From an uncultured Gemmatimonadales bacterium (lineage in GTDB: Bacteria; Gemmatimonadota; Gemmatimonadetes; Gemmatimonadales; GWC2-71-9), in the NCBI GenBank assembly GCA_963779755.1, contig CAVZZO010000003.1, positions 448,001-512,000 of the forward strand: a DNA stretch of 64,000 nt, read 5' to 3'. Shown here piece after piece: positions 14,326 to 42,791 of the stretch. Each line of letters starts with the position of its first letter. The first letter of the stretch is position 1. The notes below the pieces were generated by a model, which was given only the letters and a program-made list of their open reading frames with translations, was not told where the DNA came from and searched no databases. Made by a program: the position numbers and the translations under genes.

Positions 14326-15177
14326 TCAGCCTTTCACTGCCCCGGACGTCAGCCCCTGAACGATCCGGCGCTGGAAGAACAGCACCAGCACCGCCACCGG
14401 CGCCGTGGCGACCACGGCTGCGGCGAGGATCTGCCCCCAGGGCACCTGATACTGCCCCCGGAACAGCGCGATCGCCACCGGCACCGTCTGCCGCTCCGGC
14501 CCCAGCGTGAACGACAGCGCGAAGAGAAACTCGTTCCAGCAGTACACCAGCGTCAGGATACCGGTGGCGGCAAGCCCCGGCAGCGCGAGCGGCAGAATGA
14601 TCTCGCGCAAGATGCGCAGCCGGCCCGCCCCATCCATCATGGCTGCCTCTTCCAGCTCGCGCGGCAACTGGCGGAAAAAACTGGTGAGCAGCCAGACGGT
14701 CAGCGGCATGGCGAAGGTGAGGTACGGCAGCACCAGGCCGGGATAGGTATTGATGAGCCCCAGGCTCCGCAGCAGCAGGTAGAGCGGCGAGACGATCGAG
14801 ATCTGGGGGAACATGGAGACCGCCAGCACGAACCCGAGCACCAGCGACTTGCCGCGGAACTGCAGCCGGGCCAGGGCATAGGCGCAGAGCGACCCCAGCA
14901 GCAGGCACAGGAGGGTCGTGGCGCCGGCCACCACCAGAGAATTGCGGATGGGAAGCCAGAAATTCCGCTGGGTGAAGAGGGCGCGGTAGTGCTCCAGCAC
15001 CGGCGCCGCGGGGAACAGGGCCGGATGGGAGAAGAGGGTCGCCTCCGGCGTGACGGACGCGACGAGCATCCAGTACAGAGGGCCTGCCGCGGCCACCACC
15101 ACCGCGACCGTGGCGAACCGGCGGAGGAACCCCCAGCCCGCCGAGTACGCCGAGGCGCCCGAGCCAGTCCTAGTCAT
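14326..15177 (-). CDS. Carbohydrate ABC transporter permease (MalG type)
   Basis: ELEEAAMMDGA EAA loop, WNEFLFAL, GLTSGAVKG. Confidence 0.95.
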   Translation of the reverse strand: MTRTGSGASAYSAGWGFLRRFATVAVVVAAAGPLYWMLVASVTPEATLFSHPALFPAAPVLEHYRALFTQRNFWLPIRNSLVVAGATTLLCLLLGSLCAYALARLQFRGKSLVLGFVLAVSMFPQISIVSPLYLLLRSLGLINTYPGLVLPYLTFAMPLTVWLLTSFFRQLPRELEEAAMMDGAGRLRILREIILPLALPGLAATGILTLVYCWNEFLFALSFTLGPERQTVPVAIALFRGQYQVPWGQILAAAVVATAPVAVLVLFFQRRIVQGLTSGAVKG

Positions 15178-16059
15178 TGGTACTCAGCCGGACCCCCAGC
15201 ACCCTGATATAGAACACCGCCAGCAGGAACGTGATCAGGAAGATCACCACCGACAGTGCCGCCCCGTACCCGAAGCGCAGGTCCTGGAGCAACGCGGTGA
15301 AGGTGTAGAGCGACAGTGGCTCGGTCGCGGTGCCGGGGCCGCCGCCGGTCAGCACGTAGATCAGGTCGAACACCCGGAACGCGTCCAGGGTGCGGAAGAT
15401 CAGCGCCACCAGAATGGCGGGCCGGAGCAGCGGCAGCGTAATGTGCACGAACTGGGCCCAGGTCCCCGCCCCGTCCATGCGGGCCGCCTCGTAGGATTCC
15501 TGGTCGATGGTCTGCAGGCCCGCCAGCAGCAGCAGGGCGACGAACGGCGTCGTCTTCCAGACATCGGCCAGGATGATGGGCACCCACGCGGCCGTGGCGT
15601 GCACAAACCAGAGGACCGGATGCGGGGCGAGTCCGGTCCCGGTCAGGACCGCGTTCGCGACGCTGTGCTCTCCGCCGAAGATGAACCGCCAGAGCAGCGC
15701 CGTCACCACGGTGGGAATGGCCCAGGGCACCAGGACCGCGGCGCGCACCGCGCCGCGCCCGCGGAAGGCCCGGTTGAGGACCAGCGCCACTACCAGGCCC
15801 AGGCACAGCTCCAGGCTCACGCTGATGCCCGTGAAGATCGCGGTATGCGCCAACGCTTCCCGGAACCGGGGGTCGTGCAGCAGCTCGGCGTAGTTGGCCA
15901 GCCCGACGAAGGGCGTGCCCCGCCAGGGCATGCGCAGATCATGCAGATGCAGCGACTCCCACAGCGCCCACGCCAGGGGGAAGATCGCCACCAGCACCAC
16001 CAGTCCCAGCGCCGGCAGCACCAGCCGCCAGGCCAGCCGCGATTCGCCCCGGCCGGCGT

Positions 16060-34936: not shown

Positions 34937-36985
<2,049 letters not shown>

Positions 36986-36988
<3 letters not shown>

Positions 36989-37037
36989 TCGTTAGCAGCC
37001 GTTGGTCGTTGGTCGTTAGTCATTGGTCGTTGGTCGT
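36986..37037. repeat. Heptamer array (TRGTCRT) x~7, left arm of four-helix-bundle cassette
   Basis: tagtcgt tagcagccgt tggtcgt tggtcgt tagtcat tggtcgt tggtcgt; begins at hppA TAG. Confidence 0.9.
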
Positions 37038-37435
37038 TCTTCCTTGCTCGGTCTTTCTTTGGCCTTGGGACTCGCTCTGCGACTTCGACTCACGTGTGAA
37101 ATGAGCCCGCTCAGCATGCGGGCAATCGCCTGCACATCAGCATCCAGAAGCCTCCAGTCTGATCCGGCGAGAAACCCCAGATCGTGTGCGATGATCAACT
37201 GGCATTCGATCTCCGTTGTGGACCCCCGGGCAATTCGTAAGAACCGCTGGAGATCTCCATCTGTGCCCCGCCCGCATCCTTCCGCGACGTTTGAGAGCAG
37301 CGAGATGGATGCGCGTCGCAGCTGGCTCGAGAGCCCAAACCGTTCGTCTTCAGGGAACCGGCTGGAGACTTGGTAGATCACCTTCACCAACCGGCGGCCC
37401 CGGCGCCAGACCTCCAACTCTTTGAAATTGGCCAT
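37016..37435 (-). CDS. Four helix bundle protein (23S rRNA IVS-protein / bAvd-like family)
   Basis: MANFKELEVW...FPEDERFGLSSQLRRASISLLSNVAEGCGR...FLRIARGS..E...QL. Confidence 0.92.
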   Translation of the reverse strand: MANFKELEVWRRGRRLVKVIYQVSSRFPEDERFGLSSQLRRASISLLSNVAEGCGRGTDGDLQRFLRIARGSTTEIECQLIIAHDLGFLAGSDWRLLDADVQAIARMLSGLISHVSRSRRASPKAKERPSKEERPTTND

Positions 37436-37502
37436 GTGATATGATACGGACGCTCTCGACTTGTCCCGTACCATTTTCACGCAATCATGACCATTTTCAC
37501 CC

Positions 37503-37582
37503 ACTAACGACTAACGACTAACGACTAACGACTAGCGACTAGCGACTAGCGACTCACGACTAGCGACTAGCGACCAGCGACC
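37503..37582. repeat. Heptamer array (ACTARCG) x11, right arm of four-helix-bundle cassette
   Basis: actaacg x4, actagcg x3, actcacg, actagcg x2, accagcg; reverse complement of the left-arm unit. Confidence 0.95.
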
Positions 37583-37604
37583 ACCCAAACAGAGCTCCCA
37601 GCCC

Positions 37605-38702
37605 GTGCTCAGATTAGGCATTGTCGGTCTGCCCAATGTCGGTAAATCCACCCTCTTCAACGCCCTCACCCAGGCGGGGGCGCTGGTGGCCAACTACCCC
37701 TTTGCCACCATCGAGCCCAATACCGGCGTGGTGCAGGTGCCCGATCCCCGGCTGGATGCGCTGACCTCGATCGTGCATCCCCAGCGCACCGTCCCCGCCA
37801 CGGTCGAGTTCGTGGATATCGCGGGGCTGGTGAAGGGGGCGAGCCAGGGGGAAGGGCTGGGCAATCAGTTCCTCGCGAATATCCGCGAGGTGGACGCCAT
37901 CGTCCACGTGGTCCGCTGCTTCGAGGATCCCGATGTGCAGCATGTGATGAGCGAGGTCGACCCGGTGCGCGACCGCGAGATCGTCAACCTCGAGCTGGGC
38001 CTGGCCGACCTGGCCACGGTGGAGAAACGGCTGGATAAGAGCCAGCGCACCGCCAAGTCGGGCGACCCGCAGGCCAAGGTCGAAGCCCGGCTGCTGGAGA
38101 GGCTGCAGGAGGCGCTCTCGGCCGGCCGGCCGGCCCGCGCCGTCGAACCCTCCGACGAGGAGCGGCCGGTCTATCGCTCCTTCAACCTGCTCACCAGCAA
38201 GCCGGTGCTCTACGCCGCCAATGTGGCGGAGCAGGATGTGACGCAGGGCAACGAGCACGTCCGGGCGCTCGAAGCGGCCATCACGAAGGACAAGGAGCCG
38301 GCCGAAGTCGTCACCTTCAGTGCGAAGGTCGAAGCCGAGTTGGCCGAGTTGCCGCCGGAAGACCGGAATGACTTCCTGGAATCGCTGGGGCTGCACGAGT
38401 CCGGCCTCGACCGGCTGGCCCACGCCGCCTATCACCTCCTCGGCCTGCGCAGCTACTTCACCGCCGGCGAGAAGGAAGTCCGCGCCTGGACCATCCATGC
38501 CGGCGACAAGGCCCCCGCCGCCGCCGGCGTCATCCACAGCGATTTCGAAAAGGGATTCATCCGCGCGGAAACGGTGAGCTACGACGATTTCGTGGCCAGC
38601 GACGGGTGGAAAGGCGCCCGGGAACAGGGCCTGGTGCGGTCGGAGGGGAAAGAGTATGTGGTGCAGGACGGGGATGTGATGCTTTTTCGCTTCAATGTGT
38701 GA
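37605..38702 (+). CDS. ychF: Redox-regulated ATPase YchF
   Basis: GIVGLPNVGKSTLFN, ANYPFATIEPN, DIAGLVKGASQGEGLGNQFL, EGKEYVVQDGD. Confidence 0.97.
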   Translation: MLRLGIVGLPNVGKSTLFNALTQAGALVANYPFATIEPNTGVVQVPDPRLDALTSIVHPQRTVPATVEFVDIAGLVKGASQGEGLGNQFLANIREVDAIVHVVRCFEDPDVQHVMSEVDPVRDREIVNLELGLADLATVEKRLDKSQRTAKSGDPQAKVEARLLERLQEALSAGRPARAVEPSDEERPVYRSFNLLTSKPVLYAANVAEQDVTQGNEHVRALEAAITKDKEPAEVVTFSAKVEAELAELPPEDRNDFLESLGLHESGLDRLAHAAYHLLGLRSYFTAGEKEVRAWTIHAGDKAPAAAGVIHSDFEKGFIRAETVSYDDFVASDGWKGAREQGLVRSEGKEYVVQDGDVMLFRFNV

Positions 38703-38710
38703 GGTTTGTT

Positions 38711-38789
38711 CCTCGACCCCCTTGACCCTCTCGACCATCTCGACCGCTCAAAGGGGTCGAGGGGGTCGAGAGGGTCGAGGAGGTCAAGG
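38711..38789. repeat. Inverted pair of nonamer arrays (CTCGACCCC / GGGGTCGAG)
   Basis: ctcgacccc cttgaccct ctcgaccat ctcgacc ... ggggtcgag ggggtcgag agggtcgag gaggtcaag. Confidence 0.9.
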
Positions 38790-39188
38790 AAGGCTCCGAT
38801 TCCCCTTCGAGCCCGCACCACCGACTCCGCCGCCCGAGCGCAGTTCCTGAAGCTGGCCGCCTGGCTGGTTCCGGCGGTGGGGTTCATGCTGGCGCTGGTG
38901 GCGTGGAAACTCTTCTCCAGCGGTACCATCGAGCCGGCCGTCTTCTTCATCTTCCTCCTGCTGGACGTCGCTAGTCAGAGGCCACCTCCCCAGAAGCAGG
39001 GTCGCGAGCCCGATGCCGAGACCTCCCGGAGCGCGCGTATGTGCCCAGGGAGAGGACTCGTACTGTCTCCGTGGCGCACTTCAGCGCGCGGAGGGAGGCT
39101 CGGCGAGGGCTCGCGAAAGACGACTGGAATTGTCGGCGGTTTGTATCGACCTCTTGCCCTCGCCCTCGGCGGGCGGGATACTCATCCC

Positions 39189-41498
39189 ATGCGCCGGCTC
39201 GCGTTGTTTCTCCTCGTGTTGGCGGGTTCGGTCACCGCTCCCCGCGACGCCGTTTCCCAGTCGCCGGAGGTCCGGGCCTCGCTCGAGCGGCTTTGGCGGG
39301 CGAGGCATGTTTCTTCCACCTCCCTGAGCCCCCTCAGGGATTCGCTCTTCCGTCCCTCGAGCAATGCCTCCAGGCTGGCGGGCCTCTTCCTGCACCAGCA
39401 CGCGGCCGCAGCGGACGGCAATGCGGATGCGCTCTTCTCCACCGAGCGCGACCTGGGACGCTTCGCCCAGGAGCATCGGGACTGGCCCTGGGCCTGGACC
39501 ATGCTGGCCGAGGCGCGAGTTCAGCTCACCCAAACGGCCCGGATCAGCAAGGCCGGCCCGTTGCAGCCCGAGGGCGCGACCTGGGCCGAGGGCGCCGCCG
39601 CCGCCGCGGACCGGGCTCTCGAGCTGGACTCGCTCTTCACCCCGGCGGCGGAGGTGTTGCTGCAGCTCCTGCATACACCCGGGTTCGCCGTGGACTCCAC
39701 CGCCGTCCTCTCCCTGGTCACCCGCATGACCGATGGCCCGGGGCAGGTTCCCTCGTCCCTGCTGATTGGACGCTTCGAACTGGAAGCCGCCAACGGCATC
39801 GGCCCGGCGGCAGAGAACACCTTCCGCCGGATCCAGTCCCAGCGGGGGGACAGTGCCTCCCGGGCGGCCGCCGCCGCCGCGGCGCTCGCCAACGCTCGGA
39901 AGAACCTGGTGGCCGACAGCCTCGAGCTGGCCGGAACCCTGCTGGCCGGCTATCTGGAGGCCGGCGGCGACACGGCAGTCTATGACTTCGAGGCCGCCGC
40001 CCTCTGCTTCGCCCGGGCGCTGGCCGATTCAGCGAGCCGGCTCTATTACCAGGGCGCAGGCCGCCTCGCCAGAGACAGTATGGCCCGCTCCCTGTACCGC
40101 AATGACATCCACCTGATTGGGGACTCGGCCGAGCTTGCAGCCTTCGATCTCCTCCCCCCCGATTCTCTGCGCGGCTGGCTGGAGTATTTCTGGAGCGCGC
40201 GCGACGCGCGCAGCGGCCATCCCATCGGCGCCCGGCTGGCGGAACACCGCCGGCGCGTGCTGTACGCCCGGCGCAACTATTCCCGGCCCGCCGGGGTGAA
40301 GGTTCGGAGCTGGCTCTGGAACACCCGGCCGGAGCAGCTGGAGCGAGAGACGCGTCCGGCCAGCCTGCCGGAGCAGGAAACCACGGCGGCATCGCTGCTG
40401 GACGCATTCACCCGGGTCGGGACCGCCGGGGAGCACCCGAGTGGCGTCTTCGATGACCGGGGCCTGACATATATCCGCCATGGCCCGCCCGATCGTACAG
40501 CCCGGTACGCGGGACTGGCATACCTCTACAGCGAATCCTGGCTGTATCGCCGGCCGGTCGCGCCGCTGGTGCTGCACTTCGTCACTCCGAGCCGGAATCC
40601 TCCCGATTTCCGGCTGGTGGAGTATCCGGCTGGTGACCTGATGGATGCCTGCCAGCTGGACGCCTGGTATTGCAGCCTGGCCGGCAAGCAGAGTATCGGG
40701 GCCATGACGGAACGGGACCAGTTCCGTCTGCGGGAACGGGAACAGGAGCGCATCCGGCGCGACACCACGACCGACGACTTTCCGCTCCCCCTGGCGAAGA
40801 ACCTCAAGGCCGCGTATCGGGTGTACCGGCTCCCGCCGGCGCGCGGCACGGGCACGCTGCTCCTCATCGCCGCCTCGGCCGATCCCAAGGTTCCGGATTC
40901 CCGCCCGATTCATCTGGCCTACCGGGTCTCGGCGGTGTATCCGGCAGTCCGGCACATCATTCAGCTGGATACCGCCCTCACCATCCCGCCGGGAAAGCAC
41001 CGGGCCAGCACCACCCTGCTGGCCTACCACTTCCCGGCGGGGCACGTGCAACTCACGGTGGCGGTGATAGACAGCGCCGCCGGCAGCTCGGCCCTGGGGG
41101 TGGAGGACAGTCTCGATCTACCCGACTTCTCCGGCTCGGCGCCGGTGCTGAGCGATCTGCTGGTCGGTCTCCCGGACAGCCGGGTCCGCTGGCAGGACGG
41201 CGGCGCAGCCTTCCCGCTCTCGCCGGGCCAGACCTTCCGGGAGGGCGCCACGGTGACGGTGGCCTATGCCGTCCGCGGCTTCAGCGGCGACGTGCGAACC
41301 ACCATCGAGATTCGCCGGGGCGACAAGGCACGAACCAGCGTGTCCTTCACCGAGCCGCTCGACCCGAAAGAGCTCCTGGTTCAGCGCCGCATCGGGCTCG
41401 GCAAGCTGGGCTGGGGGAATTACACGTTGCGGGTGACCCTGACGGAGCTGGCGACGGGACGGGAGCTGAGTCGGGAGACGGAGATTGTGGTGAAGTAG
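39189..41498 (+). CDS. Secreted GWxTD-domain-like protein
   Basis: Signal peptide MRRLALFLLVLA; FWSARD...EHRRRVLYA...DDRGLTYIRHGPPD...ESWLY; C-terminal LSDLLVG and GNYTLRVTLT beta domains. Confidence 0.75.
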   Translation: MRRLALFLLVLAGSVTAPRDAVSQSPEVRASLERLWRARHVSSTSLSPLRDSLFRPSSNASRLAGLFLHQHAAAADGNADALFSTERDLGRFAQEHRDWPWAWTMLAEARVQLTQTARISKAGPLQPEGATWAEGAAAAADRALELDSLFTPAAEVLLQLLHTPGFAVDSTAVLSLVTRMTDGPGQVPSSLLIGRFELEAANGIGPAAENTFRRIQSQRGDSASRAAAAAAALANARKNLVADSLELAGTLLAGYLEAGGDTAVYDFEAAALCFARALADSASRLYYQGAGRLARDSMARSLYRNDIHLIGDSAELAAFDLLPPDSLRGWLEYFWSARDARSGHPIGARLAEHRRRVLYARRNYSRPAGVKVRSWLWNTRPEQLERETRPASLPEQETTAASLLDAFTRVGTAGEHPSGVFDDRGLTYIRHGPPDRTARYAGLAYLYSESWLYRRPVAPLVLHFVTPSRNPPDFRLVEYPAGDLMDACQLDAWYCSLAGKQSIGAMTERDQFRLREREQERIRRDTTTDDFPLPLAKNLKAAYRVYRLPPARGTGTLLLIAASADPKVPDSRPIHLAYRVSAVYPAVRHIIQLDTALTIPPGKHRASTTLLAYHFPAGHVQLTVAVIDSAAGSSALGVEDSLDLPDFSGSAPVLSDLLVGLPDSRVRWQDGGAAFPLSPGQTFREGATVTVAYAVRGFSGDVRTTIEIRRGDKARTSVSFTEPLDPKELLVQRRIGLGKLGWGNYTLRVTLTELATGRELSRETEIVVK

Positions 41499-41504
41499 TC
41501 GCTA

Positions 41505-42642
41505 GTGTTGCGTCTCAGAAATCATGTTAACGTCGCAGGGCTTTCTTGATGATCTCTGCGGGCGTCTTCGTCCAGATGAAGGGCCGAGGATCGGCATTCC
41601 AAGGGGCCAGGTAATGCTCAATGTGTCGAACCAGTGCGCGGACGGAGCGGAACGAGGCGCGGCGCCCGGACTGGCGCGTCAGGACGCCGAACCACGCTTC
41701 GATGAGATTGAGCCAGGACGCGCCCGTCGGGGTGAAATGAAAGTGCACGCGCGGGTGGACGGCGAGCCAGGCTTTGATGGCCGGCGTCGAGTGCGTCGAC
41801 GAATTATCGAGGATCACATGCAAGGGCTGCCGGGGGTAGGTCCGCGCCAGCTGCTTGAGGAAGCGGAGGAAGTCCGCGGCCGTGTGGCGCGGGGAGCACG
41901 TGCCGGGAACGCGACCCGAGCCGACTTCGAGCGCGGCGTAGAGGCTGGTGAGGCCATGGCGGCGATAGTCGTGAGTCTGGCGGGCCGGCAGGTGCGGGCG
42001 CAGCGGCAAGAGCGGCTGCGTCCGCTCGAGCGCCTGGATCTGCGTCTTCTCATCCACACTCAGCACGACGGCATTGGTGGGCGGGGCGAGATAGAGTCCG
42101 ACCACGTCCTGGATCTTGGCTTCGGCGGCCGGGTCGGTCGTGAACTTGAACGTCTCCTGGCGATGGGGCTGGAGCGCGTGGCCGCGCCAGAGGCGTTGCA
42201 CGGTGCTCGGGGAGACGCCCACTCGCTTGGCCAATTCCCGGGTACTCCATTGGGAGAGCCCCGGGGGCGGCGCCTGGAGGGTGAGCGCCAAGATCCGGGC
42301 CCGTTTGGCCTCGCTCACCGTTGCGGGGCGGCCGGCGCGGGGGCGCTCGCCCAAGCCCAGCACCCCTTCGGCGGCGTAGCGGGCGCGCACGCGACTGATC
42401 TGGACCGGGGTATAGCCGGTGCGCTCGGCGATGGTGGTCCCCGGCAAGCCCTCGGCCATCAGCAACACCGCCCGGGCGCGGCGACTCAGCCCCGCCGGCG
42501 TGGTCGACGCCCGCACCAATCCTTCCAGCAGTTCACGATCGTCGGCGGTCACGGCGATAGGGCGCGAGTGATTGGCCATGCGGTTCCTCCCGGGCGCATT
42601 CCCGAGAGGCAATATATTATCATGACTTCTGACGCGCTACAC
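41505..42642 (-). mobile_element. IS630-family insertion sequence, 1138 bp, TA target duplication
   Basis: Ends TAGTGTTGCGTCTCAGAAATCATG vs (revcomp) TAGTGTAGCGCGTCAGAAGTCATG, 20/24 match including TA; both ends in CTAG context. Confidence 0.92.
41527..42579 (-). CDS. IS630-family transposase
   Basis: N-terminal HTH (RRARAVLL, WSTRELA); DDE triad VDEK / ILDNSSTH / SWLNLIE; GGAGG RBS; uninterrupted frame. Confidence 0.95.
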   Translation of the reverse strand: MANHSRPIAVTADDRELLEGLVRASTTPAGLSRRARAVLLMAEGLPGTTIAERTGYTPVQISRVRARYAAEGVLGLGERPRAGRPATVSEAKRARILALTLQAPPPGLSQWSTRELAKRVGVSPSTVQRLWRGHALQPHRQETFKFTTDPAAEAKIQDVVGLYLAPPTNAVVLSVDEKTQIQALERTQPLLPLRPHLPARQTHDYRRHGLTSLYAALEVGSGRVPGTCSPRHTAADFLRFLKQLARTYPRQPLHVILDNSSTHSTPAIKAWLAVHPRVHFHFTPTGASWLNLIEAWFGVLTRQSGRRASFRSVRALVRHIEHYLAPWNADPRPFIWTKTPAEIIKKALRR

Positions 42643-42722
42643 TAGTTGCTAGTCGGAAGCTAGCTCGGCGCGAGGGCCGGGTGTGCGCAGGCACAACCGC
42701 ACCGGAGGGTGGCGTGTGGTAT

Positions 42723-42791
42723 GACTAATGACTAATGACTAATGACTAATGACTAATGACTAATGACTAATGACTAGCGACTAGCGACCAC
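42723..42791. repeat. Heptamer array (GACTAAT)x7 + (GACTAGC)x2
   Basis: Seven perfect units 42723-42771; overlaps 3' end of the DUF4112 gene. Confidence 0.95.

Follow-up and report, generated by a model that had tools for sequence, protein, structure and literature searches.

A gene for a 139-residue four-helix-bundle protein and the two arrays of tandem heptamers that bracket it, lying between hppA and ychF in an uncultured Gemmatimonadales bacterium, form one unit that is gained, lost, moved and replaced as a whole. We read this unit as a selfish cassette of gene and repeats, with a G-rich arm to the left of the gene and a C-rich arm to its right. It would be an intergenic form of the intervening sequences (IVS) that carry an ORF in 23S rRNA, and would follow a logic like that of RAYT genes and their REPINs, in which the protein would bind its own repeat and seed further hairpins of it; we give this reading, binding and seeding included, a probability of roughly 0.58. 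The protein probably spreads or maintains 7-base repeats, of a bacterial kind that has long lacked an explanation, which are scattered through this genome and are rare in related genomes. The window is the whole stretch of 64,000 nucleotides that was analysed, and the features of the locus are collected in Table 1.

Table 1. Features of the hppA-ychF locus and of the related hairpin downstream (window coordinates).
Feature	Position	Strand	Remarks
hppA (membrane pyrophosphatase), host gene, left flank	34937..36988	+	profile match
Left arm, G-rich tandem heptamers TRGTCRT	36986..37038	+	starts on the hppA stop codon; inner part, read on the - strand, supplies the final codons and the stop of the gene
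Four-helix-bundle gene, 139 aa from ATG, intact	37016..37435	-	PF05635 / TIGR02436, XCC0516/S23p family
Candidate -10 box TATCAT, 5 nt before the ATG	37441..37446	-	putative leaderless promoter inside the cassette
Right arm, C-rich tandem heptamers ACTARCG	37503..37583	+	11.3 copies; ends 21 nt ahead of the ychF start
ychF, host gene, right flank	37605..38702	+	TIGR00092
Gene-less hairpin of the unit of the 37016-37435 gene	41496..42788	+	G-arm split by IS630 (transposase 41527-42612), then loop, C-arm 42721-42788

The initial annotation, made from the letters alone, had described an antisense four-helix-bundle gene inside complementary heptamer arms, and profile searches bear this out: the protein scores 113.5 bits against PF05635 (cut-off 33.8) and 106.4 bits against TIGR02436 (cut-off 24). 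Its predicted structure has four helices (pLDDT 95.6), and in a fold search the model matches XCC0516 (2GSC; TM 0.93, rmsd 1.2 to 2gsc_B) and is also similar to BT_0352. The fold in common with Avd is recovered as well (4DWL and 8UB7; TM 0.77-0.81, identity 10-11%), while the score against the bAvd profile PF22296, 23.4 bits, lies under the cut-off of 40, which places the protein outside the Avd proteins of DGRs. The tail of the protein exceeds the usual family length, since the family profiles stop at residues 110-118. The closest named relative comes from a Gemmatimonadales MAG, and a 148-base contig from one of four DNA runs, which may derive from the source sample, equals 36895-37042 with zero differences. 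As had been noticed, the gene is poorer in GC than its neighbours (0.583 vs 0.694 and 0.662), and its GC3 is 0.66 vs 0.92 and 0.86. Judged from sequence, the family gene looks functional. In 14 of 15 hand-chosen close family pairs, among which the gene at 37016-37435 has no close partner, dN/dS is 0.03-0.20, with 0.53 in the remaining one; purifying selection acts on close pairs of the PF05635 family. In the cassette, neither Pfam nor NCBIfam nor the fold search names anything but a four-helix bundle, and no transposase is found there. Rfam gives no family above its gathering score over 36900-37700 and RVT_1 is not found in a genome-wide profile search, in agreement with the earlier remark that the locus has neither rRNA nor reverse transcriptase.

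A TANNNT box 5-8 nt ahead of the start, of the kind listed in Table 1, occurs at 34 of 109 Gemmatimonadales family genes vs 171 of 2893 called genes; a promoter and terminator scan of the locus returned no full sigma-70 promoter and no terminator. If the candidate -10 promoter is used, the gene would have an mRNA of its own that leaves out the upstream arm.

For the left arm about seven TRGTCRT units had been counted from the hppA TAG. The starting point at 36986 stands and the count is slightly generous, there being six clean units and one 10-nt interruption (TRF gives 5.6 copies at 37000-37038). The right arm, put at 11 ACTARCG units, comes to 11.3 copies of ACTAGCG by TRF (37503-37581). The two arms are reverse-complementary as stated and pair into a stem of about 50 bp (z = -5.5, with 0 of 20 shuffles equally good), and the residues RPTTND and the stop that follows them are indeed read from the left arm. 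The arms of this locus pair better on the operon strand (-76.3 vs -57.5 kcal/mol); an energy-based test showed no strand bias of the stems across the family (28 of 68; 54 vs 48). Terminal inverted repeats surround the S23p ORF here as they do in the IVS of 23S rRNA, and the flanks are hppA and ychF rather than an rRNA gene. No target duplication is seen by eye at the cassette ends of this locus, in a comparison that holds no same-genus empty sites, and the cassette has neither the transposase nor the near-identical dispersed copies with target duplication that mark IS elements and MITEs.

Does this architecture recur around other members of the family? We define the arm score as the inverted similarity between the 260-nt flanks of a gene, with a threshold of at least 28, and scored 187 family loci, 183 of them with enough flank. 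The relatives' set holds 109 of the 134 family matches outside this genome, mostly the strongest, and the 3440 control genes are crudely called. The present genome (4.23 Mb, 97% complete) has 8 intact PF05635 family genes and one decayed copy. Inverted arms reach the threshold at 7 of the 8 own paralogs, 96 of 106 loci from relatives and 52 of 69 GTDB loci. Among the control genes 86 of 3440 do so, and among small control genes 9 of 566, so the enrichment that the initial annotation had proposed to look for lies far above controls. In direct orientation the same score is reached by 0 own, 5 relatives' and 9 GTDB loci. A hold-out set from other phyla gives 76 of 101 for inverted arms vs 15 for direct ones, and the wider samples pooled, beyond the own genome and the relatives, give 128 of 170. 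The eighth paralog has an IS3-like element in place of the expected upstream arm (L224:830-2801, C3 near 1,258,000), and behind that element comes an IS30-like transposase; both were identified by eye. Units can be called in 137 of the 183 loci and comprise 79 heptamers and 41 octamers, the remainder having 6 and 9-11 bases; the arms have a median of 4 units each, and the upstream arm is the G-rich one in 116 of these 137 loci. Among the 8 of 28 plasmid records that were examined, 6 of 7 cyanobacterial loci have arms, as does a 23S rRNA locus of Azospirillum. The 28 records with the family in the plasmid collection are nearly all cyanobacterial, and roughly half are plasmids predicted to be conjugative; the phage collection gave no family match. 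Two cassettes with different units (an 8-mer and a 7-mer) stand within 1.5 kb on either side of a single gene at C3:1584081-1585572, which we take to be crcB-like.

The spot upstream of ychF is a repeated insertion point. We compared it in 29 relatives, none from the same genus, and found hppA directly next to ychF, 4-29 nt apart, in 5 of them. One relative (L016) carries there an antisense family gene of 31% identity with another unit, another (L022) a decayed cassette, and several more have gene-less arrays. The gene is not fixed at this junction, which may be empty, hold a gene-less hairpin, or hold an unrelated gene with other arms, and gene and arms appear and vanish together, in line with the mobile unit that had been suggested. 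Neither outcome that the initial annotation had named as fatal to it, a gene fixed at the site without arrays or arrays no commoner there than at random genes, is what we find. At other places, the unit is the same in 19 family pairs of at least 50% identity whose flanks are not shared and whose sites are apparently different; "different site" may be over-called here because the flanks compared are at most 330 nt. A further 18 pairs, of low identity, share a flank and differ in unit. None of 19 same-site, same-unit pairs holds a flipped copy. As for the neighbourhood, the order pth-hppA-ychF is found in this genome and in 9 of the 29 relatives, and pth is the nearest recognised gene before ychF in 18.

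The repeats of this genome are tied to its resident genes. Heptamer arrays exceed chance (282 vs 29 hexamer arrays), 253 of them fall for the most part outside called genes, and the intergenic arrays number 526. Of 45 close hairpins, 30 run G-left/C-right, the polarity of the cassette, and 2 the reverse. Each of the 7 two-armed paralogs has a distinct unit, with 5-23 exact gene-less (solo) arrays of it elsewhere in the genome. At least 5 exact solos are found here for 7 of 7 resident units, vs 1 of 75 relatives' units (p = 6e-10) and 1 of 41 GTDB units. Together the 7 resident units exactly match 77 of 510 solos, vs a mean of 2.0 (maximum 16) for random sets of relatives' units, and within one mismatch they match 241 vs a mean of 51 over 5000 random sets; kin are not independent, and the p values therefore overstate. 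The 269 of 510 solos that are more than one mismatch from all 7 tested resident units include some that belong to the eighth paralog or to the GxxExxY cassettes described below. The unit of the hppA-ychF gene forms 21 clusters in the genome, two of which are the cassette arms. In a reciprocal search over 41 genomes it has 51 overlapping matches here and at most 3 in any of 40 relatives; likewise the unit of a relative's cassette (L065) has 28 matches in its own genome (G015) and at most 1 elsewhere. A third such search is weaker, with 5 and 1 matches in two carrier genomes and 1-2 in three others. At the ychF junction, solos match a cassette from their own genome in 4 of 55 cases vs 3 of 2091.

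How closely does the unit follow the protein? Cross-genome pairs of at least 60% identity share a unit within 1 mismatch in 25 of 72 cases, vs 79 of 6197 for pairs below 40%, and same-genome paralogs below 40% identity do so in 0 of 116; below 55% identity the unit similarity barely tracks protein identity (r = 0.04 and 0.155). The solos are not recent copies of one master, because their loops are weakly alike. Among 80 of at least 123 metagenome matches to arrays of the hppA-ychF unit, the family gene is present in 1 of 60 loci that have 600-800 nt on the inner side. The initial annotation had taken the other repeat hairpins of the window for empty copies of the cassette. Gene-less copies do exist and track the resident gene, and the dispersed hairpins are of the gene's own repeat type, as in RAYT-REPIN systems; most other hairpins of the window, however, use the units of other paralogs, and among the arrays above threshold only the one at 41496/42642-42788 uses the unit of the 37016-37435 gene. 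A hairpin with a 9-base unit at 38712-38789 is followed by a large GWxTD-domain-like gene after ychF (38706-41498).

Combining the layout of the cassette with the structures of homologs, we propose how it might work. The protein would be expressed from a promoter inside the cassette and, by analogy with the five chains of 2GSC, which PMC4990558 terms a homopentamer in the part available to us, could assemble as an Avd-like pentamer. In the Avd complex, as far as that account was available (bioRxiv 10.1101/2023.10.23.563531), an RNA stem-loop with flipped-out bases is touched by all five protomers of the pentamer. On this precedent the protein may bind nucleic acid of its own unit in single-stranded or hairpin form, the median of 4 units per arm corresponding to about one per protomer. 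Binding would then seed or preserve hairpins of the same unit with the help of host enzymes, which is RAYT/REPIN logic with no known catalytic site in the protein. The paired arms may meanwhile fold the insertion away, making it tolerable between operon genes and, in this lineage, uncut by RNase III.

The nearest known systems share parts of this picture. ORF-bearing 23S rRNA IVS with S23p (Coxiella burnetii, Leptospira; PMC4990558, seen in part) have the same protein family, a gene in an inverted-repeat loop and heptamers in the 5' arm, and the Azospirillum 23S copy has repeat-built arms like those of this cassette. The cassette differs in its position between protein genes, in its antisense orientation, in having a candidate promoter of its own, and in belonging to a lineage where RNase III is not found; dispersed same-unit hairpins are not mentioned in the portions of PMC4990558 that we consulted. 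Like RAYT-REPIN (PMC3337134, in part), it has a single-copy gene bordered by inverted repeats of the gene's own type, and gene-less hairpins of that type are spread as a population over the whole genome. A RAYT, however, is a tyrosine (HUH) transposase, which the 139-residue protein, a four-helix bundle with no known catalytic site, is not, and the arms are tandem 7-11-mers of variable copy number with diverse loops, not REP palindromes. Avd is alike in fold and unlike in its 10-11% identity, in the score below the PF22296 cut-off and in the reverse transcriptase, which is not found in this genome. By membership the cassette is not an IVS, a RAYT or an Avd; it is built like an IVS and behaves like a RAYT.

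A second protein family occurs in the same layout. Among 14 ORFs found between inverted arms in a cargo scan of this genome, 2 are GxxExxY, 5 have no family, and the remaining 7 are ordinary enzymes or transport/redox proteins between neighbouring solos. GxxExxY (TIGR04256) has twelve matches in the genome (L216:159-665, L217:217-969, L351-L360), and those that are full-length are enclosed by inverted arms with units of 8-9 bases (CGCAGATTA, CGCGAAGA); parallel systems and a shared host process fit this equally well. Gene-less derivatives occur at L213 and L218, and duplicated or truncated copies cluster at C3:1.489-1.506 Mb.

That the unrelated GxxExxY family has the same architecture here also suits an explanation in which the repeats spread by themselves, through slippage, template switching and host gene conversion, with the arms as a founder copy and the gene as cargo kept for an unrelated host benefit, never reading the repeat. 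Most arrays have no adjacent gene, arrays persist in genomes with no detectable gene, and linkage alone accounts for units that follow close protein relatives. The lack of a residue-to-base code is consistent with it too. A mutual-information scan of residue against base over 69 heptamer loci, with an EM-chosen register, gave a diffuse signal, and a test free of register, run on 58 representatives, singled out D100, C54, C78 and D59. These four pre-registered columns rank 16, 21, 44 and 82 of 113 in 32 held-out proteins, a set of limited power, and the code fails this test; when the data are pooled, training data included, C54 comes first. Self-spreading nevertheless leaves unexplained that ordinary genes are rarely bracketed (86 of 3440), that each paralog has its own unit rather than one of the commonest hairpin families, and that a gene so often gained and lost is under purifying selection; we consider it unlikely, at about one chance in five.

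The gene could instead encode a domesticated post-transcriptional regulator, whose pentamer would bind repeats in the leaders and trailers of mRNAs, with TRAP-like binding as the model and the solos selected by the host as binding sites. The arrays do lie close to gene ends, and hairpins are scarce between divergent genes (3 vs 12.8 expected) and enriched between convergent ones (35 vs 12.7). Avd binds RNA, and a regulatory role has been suggested for TAACTGA repeats in the part of PMC4679880 that was available. A host regulator would not, however, lead us to expect that units at one junction vary between genomes, that polarity is set by left or right position and not by start or stop, or that the transcribed strand folds no better (28 of 68), and we hold it to be slightly less probable again than self-spreading.

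The selfish cassette that we prefer would need no RNA excision. RNase III is not found in this genome with three profiles and a motif scan, and 39 of 40 relatives searched also give no match, whereas 8-9 of 14 control genomes do; for this lineage the IVS-type route of excision thereby falls away. Among the 41 Gemmatimonadales-group genomes searched the enzyme is found in 1 (one contig of G038), a scarcity uncommon in bacteria that may allow so many hairpins to be carried. When inverted arms recombine, the stretch between them is flipped and not excised. The excisable element of the initial annotation, removed from hppA-ychF transcripts through RNase III cleavage as at the heptamer start of the Coxiella IVS (PMC4990558, in part) or freed from the DNA as a circle, is therefore highly improbable: the better pairing on the operon strand here would suit it, whereas the enzyme is missing from these searches, the arms are inverted, no target duplication is seen and no flipped copy exists among the 19 same-site pairs. 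No relevant title on RNase III loss in Gemmatimonadota was among the literature matches listed.

The same repeat class has been described in other bacteria. Rehm et al. 2015 (PMC4692102, in the portions available) report the GGGAATC repeats of Xanthomonas and the GGGGA(C/T)T repeats of Nostoc as intergenic arrays and inverted pairs, and the polarity of the GGGAATC arrays at stop and start codons is the one seen here; these and the TAACTGA repeats (PMC4679880, likewise in part) are arrays of one class with ours, in which the unit is tied to a resident gene. The main texts of the two papers, apart from their supplementary neighbour-gene lists, contain no mention that we found of an S23p, XCC0516 or helix-bundle gene (PMC4692102) or of a four-helix, IVS or Avd protein (PMC4679880). 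We predicted that GGGAATC-rich genomes carry the family gene in GGGAATC-type arms, and examined 201 genomes of the order of a Dyella genome (Xanthomonadales), 13 of which have long GGGAATC arrays. The family gene is present in 9 of these 13 vs 61 of the 188 others (p = 0.013), and 4 of the 13 have no detectable family gene. Of 10 genomes inspected, 8 have the gene. In 6 of these it is enclosed by arms of GGGA(A/T)TC type, one of the six having GGGAATG and one a frameshifted gene; in the other two the arms are GGAAATC and an unrelated unit, respectively. The six are XCC0516-like by eye from the alignment to 2GSC. They are not independent, because they apparently occupy one orthologous site, which we take, by eye and from the gene ends, to lie between accB and accC.

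These results allow a broader and more tentative proposal, to which we give about one chance in three: that PF05635 proteins are the makers of bacterial 7-11-base intergenic repeats, with one unit per paralog and hairpins seeded genome-wide by proteins that have no catalytic site of their own. The Xanthomonas GGGAATC repeats, the cyanobacterial heptamers and the ORF-bearing rRNA IVS would then be one replicator class, with XCC0516 cognate to GGGA(A/T)TC. If true, this would bring together three published puzzles: what the S23p/IVS protein does, where the ORF-bearing rRNA IVS come from, and what produces the abundant heptamer repeats of Xanthomonas and cyanobacteria. The IVS with S23p, the heptamer repeats (in the Coxiella IVS, tandem heptamers precede the S23p ORF, with RNase III cleavage at the first one; PMC4990558, in part) and RAYT-REPIN logic are known. 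New are the controlled tests of one repeat family per paralog, the prediction test in Xanthomonadales, the failure to find RNase III and the negative outcome of the code test. No paper linking gene and repeats outside rRNA was among the literature matches listed, mostly open ones.

The pattern of one unit per paralog lends itself to a direct cross-binding assay, with eight proteins and their repeats in one genome and the structure of a homolog solved. The apparent lack of RNase III in most of the Gemmatimonadales searched shows that the cassette can persist there without RNA excision, and may be why hairpins accumulate. Two further places in the genome hold such arrays. At C3:706400-707000 (L211), octamer hairpins fill the spacers of tRNA-like genes, these genes being recognised by eye, and a duplicated stretch (L212 and L223; C1:9100-9800 and 14400-15200) holds nested arrays of three units, some apparently within or at the start of a coding region.
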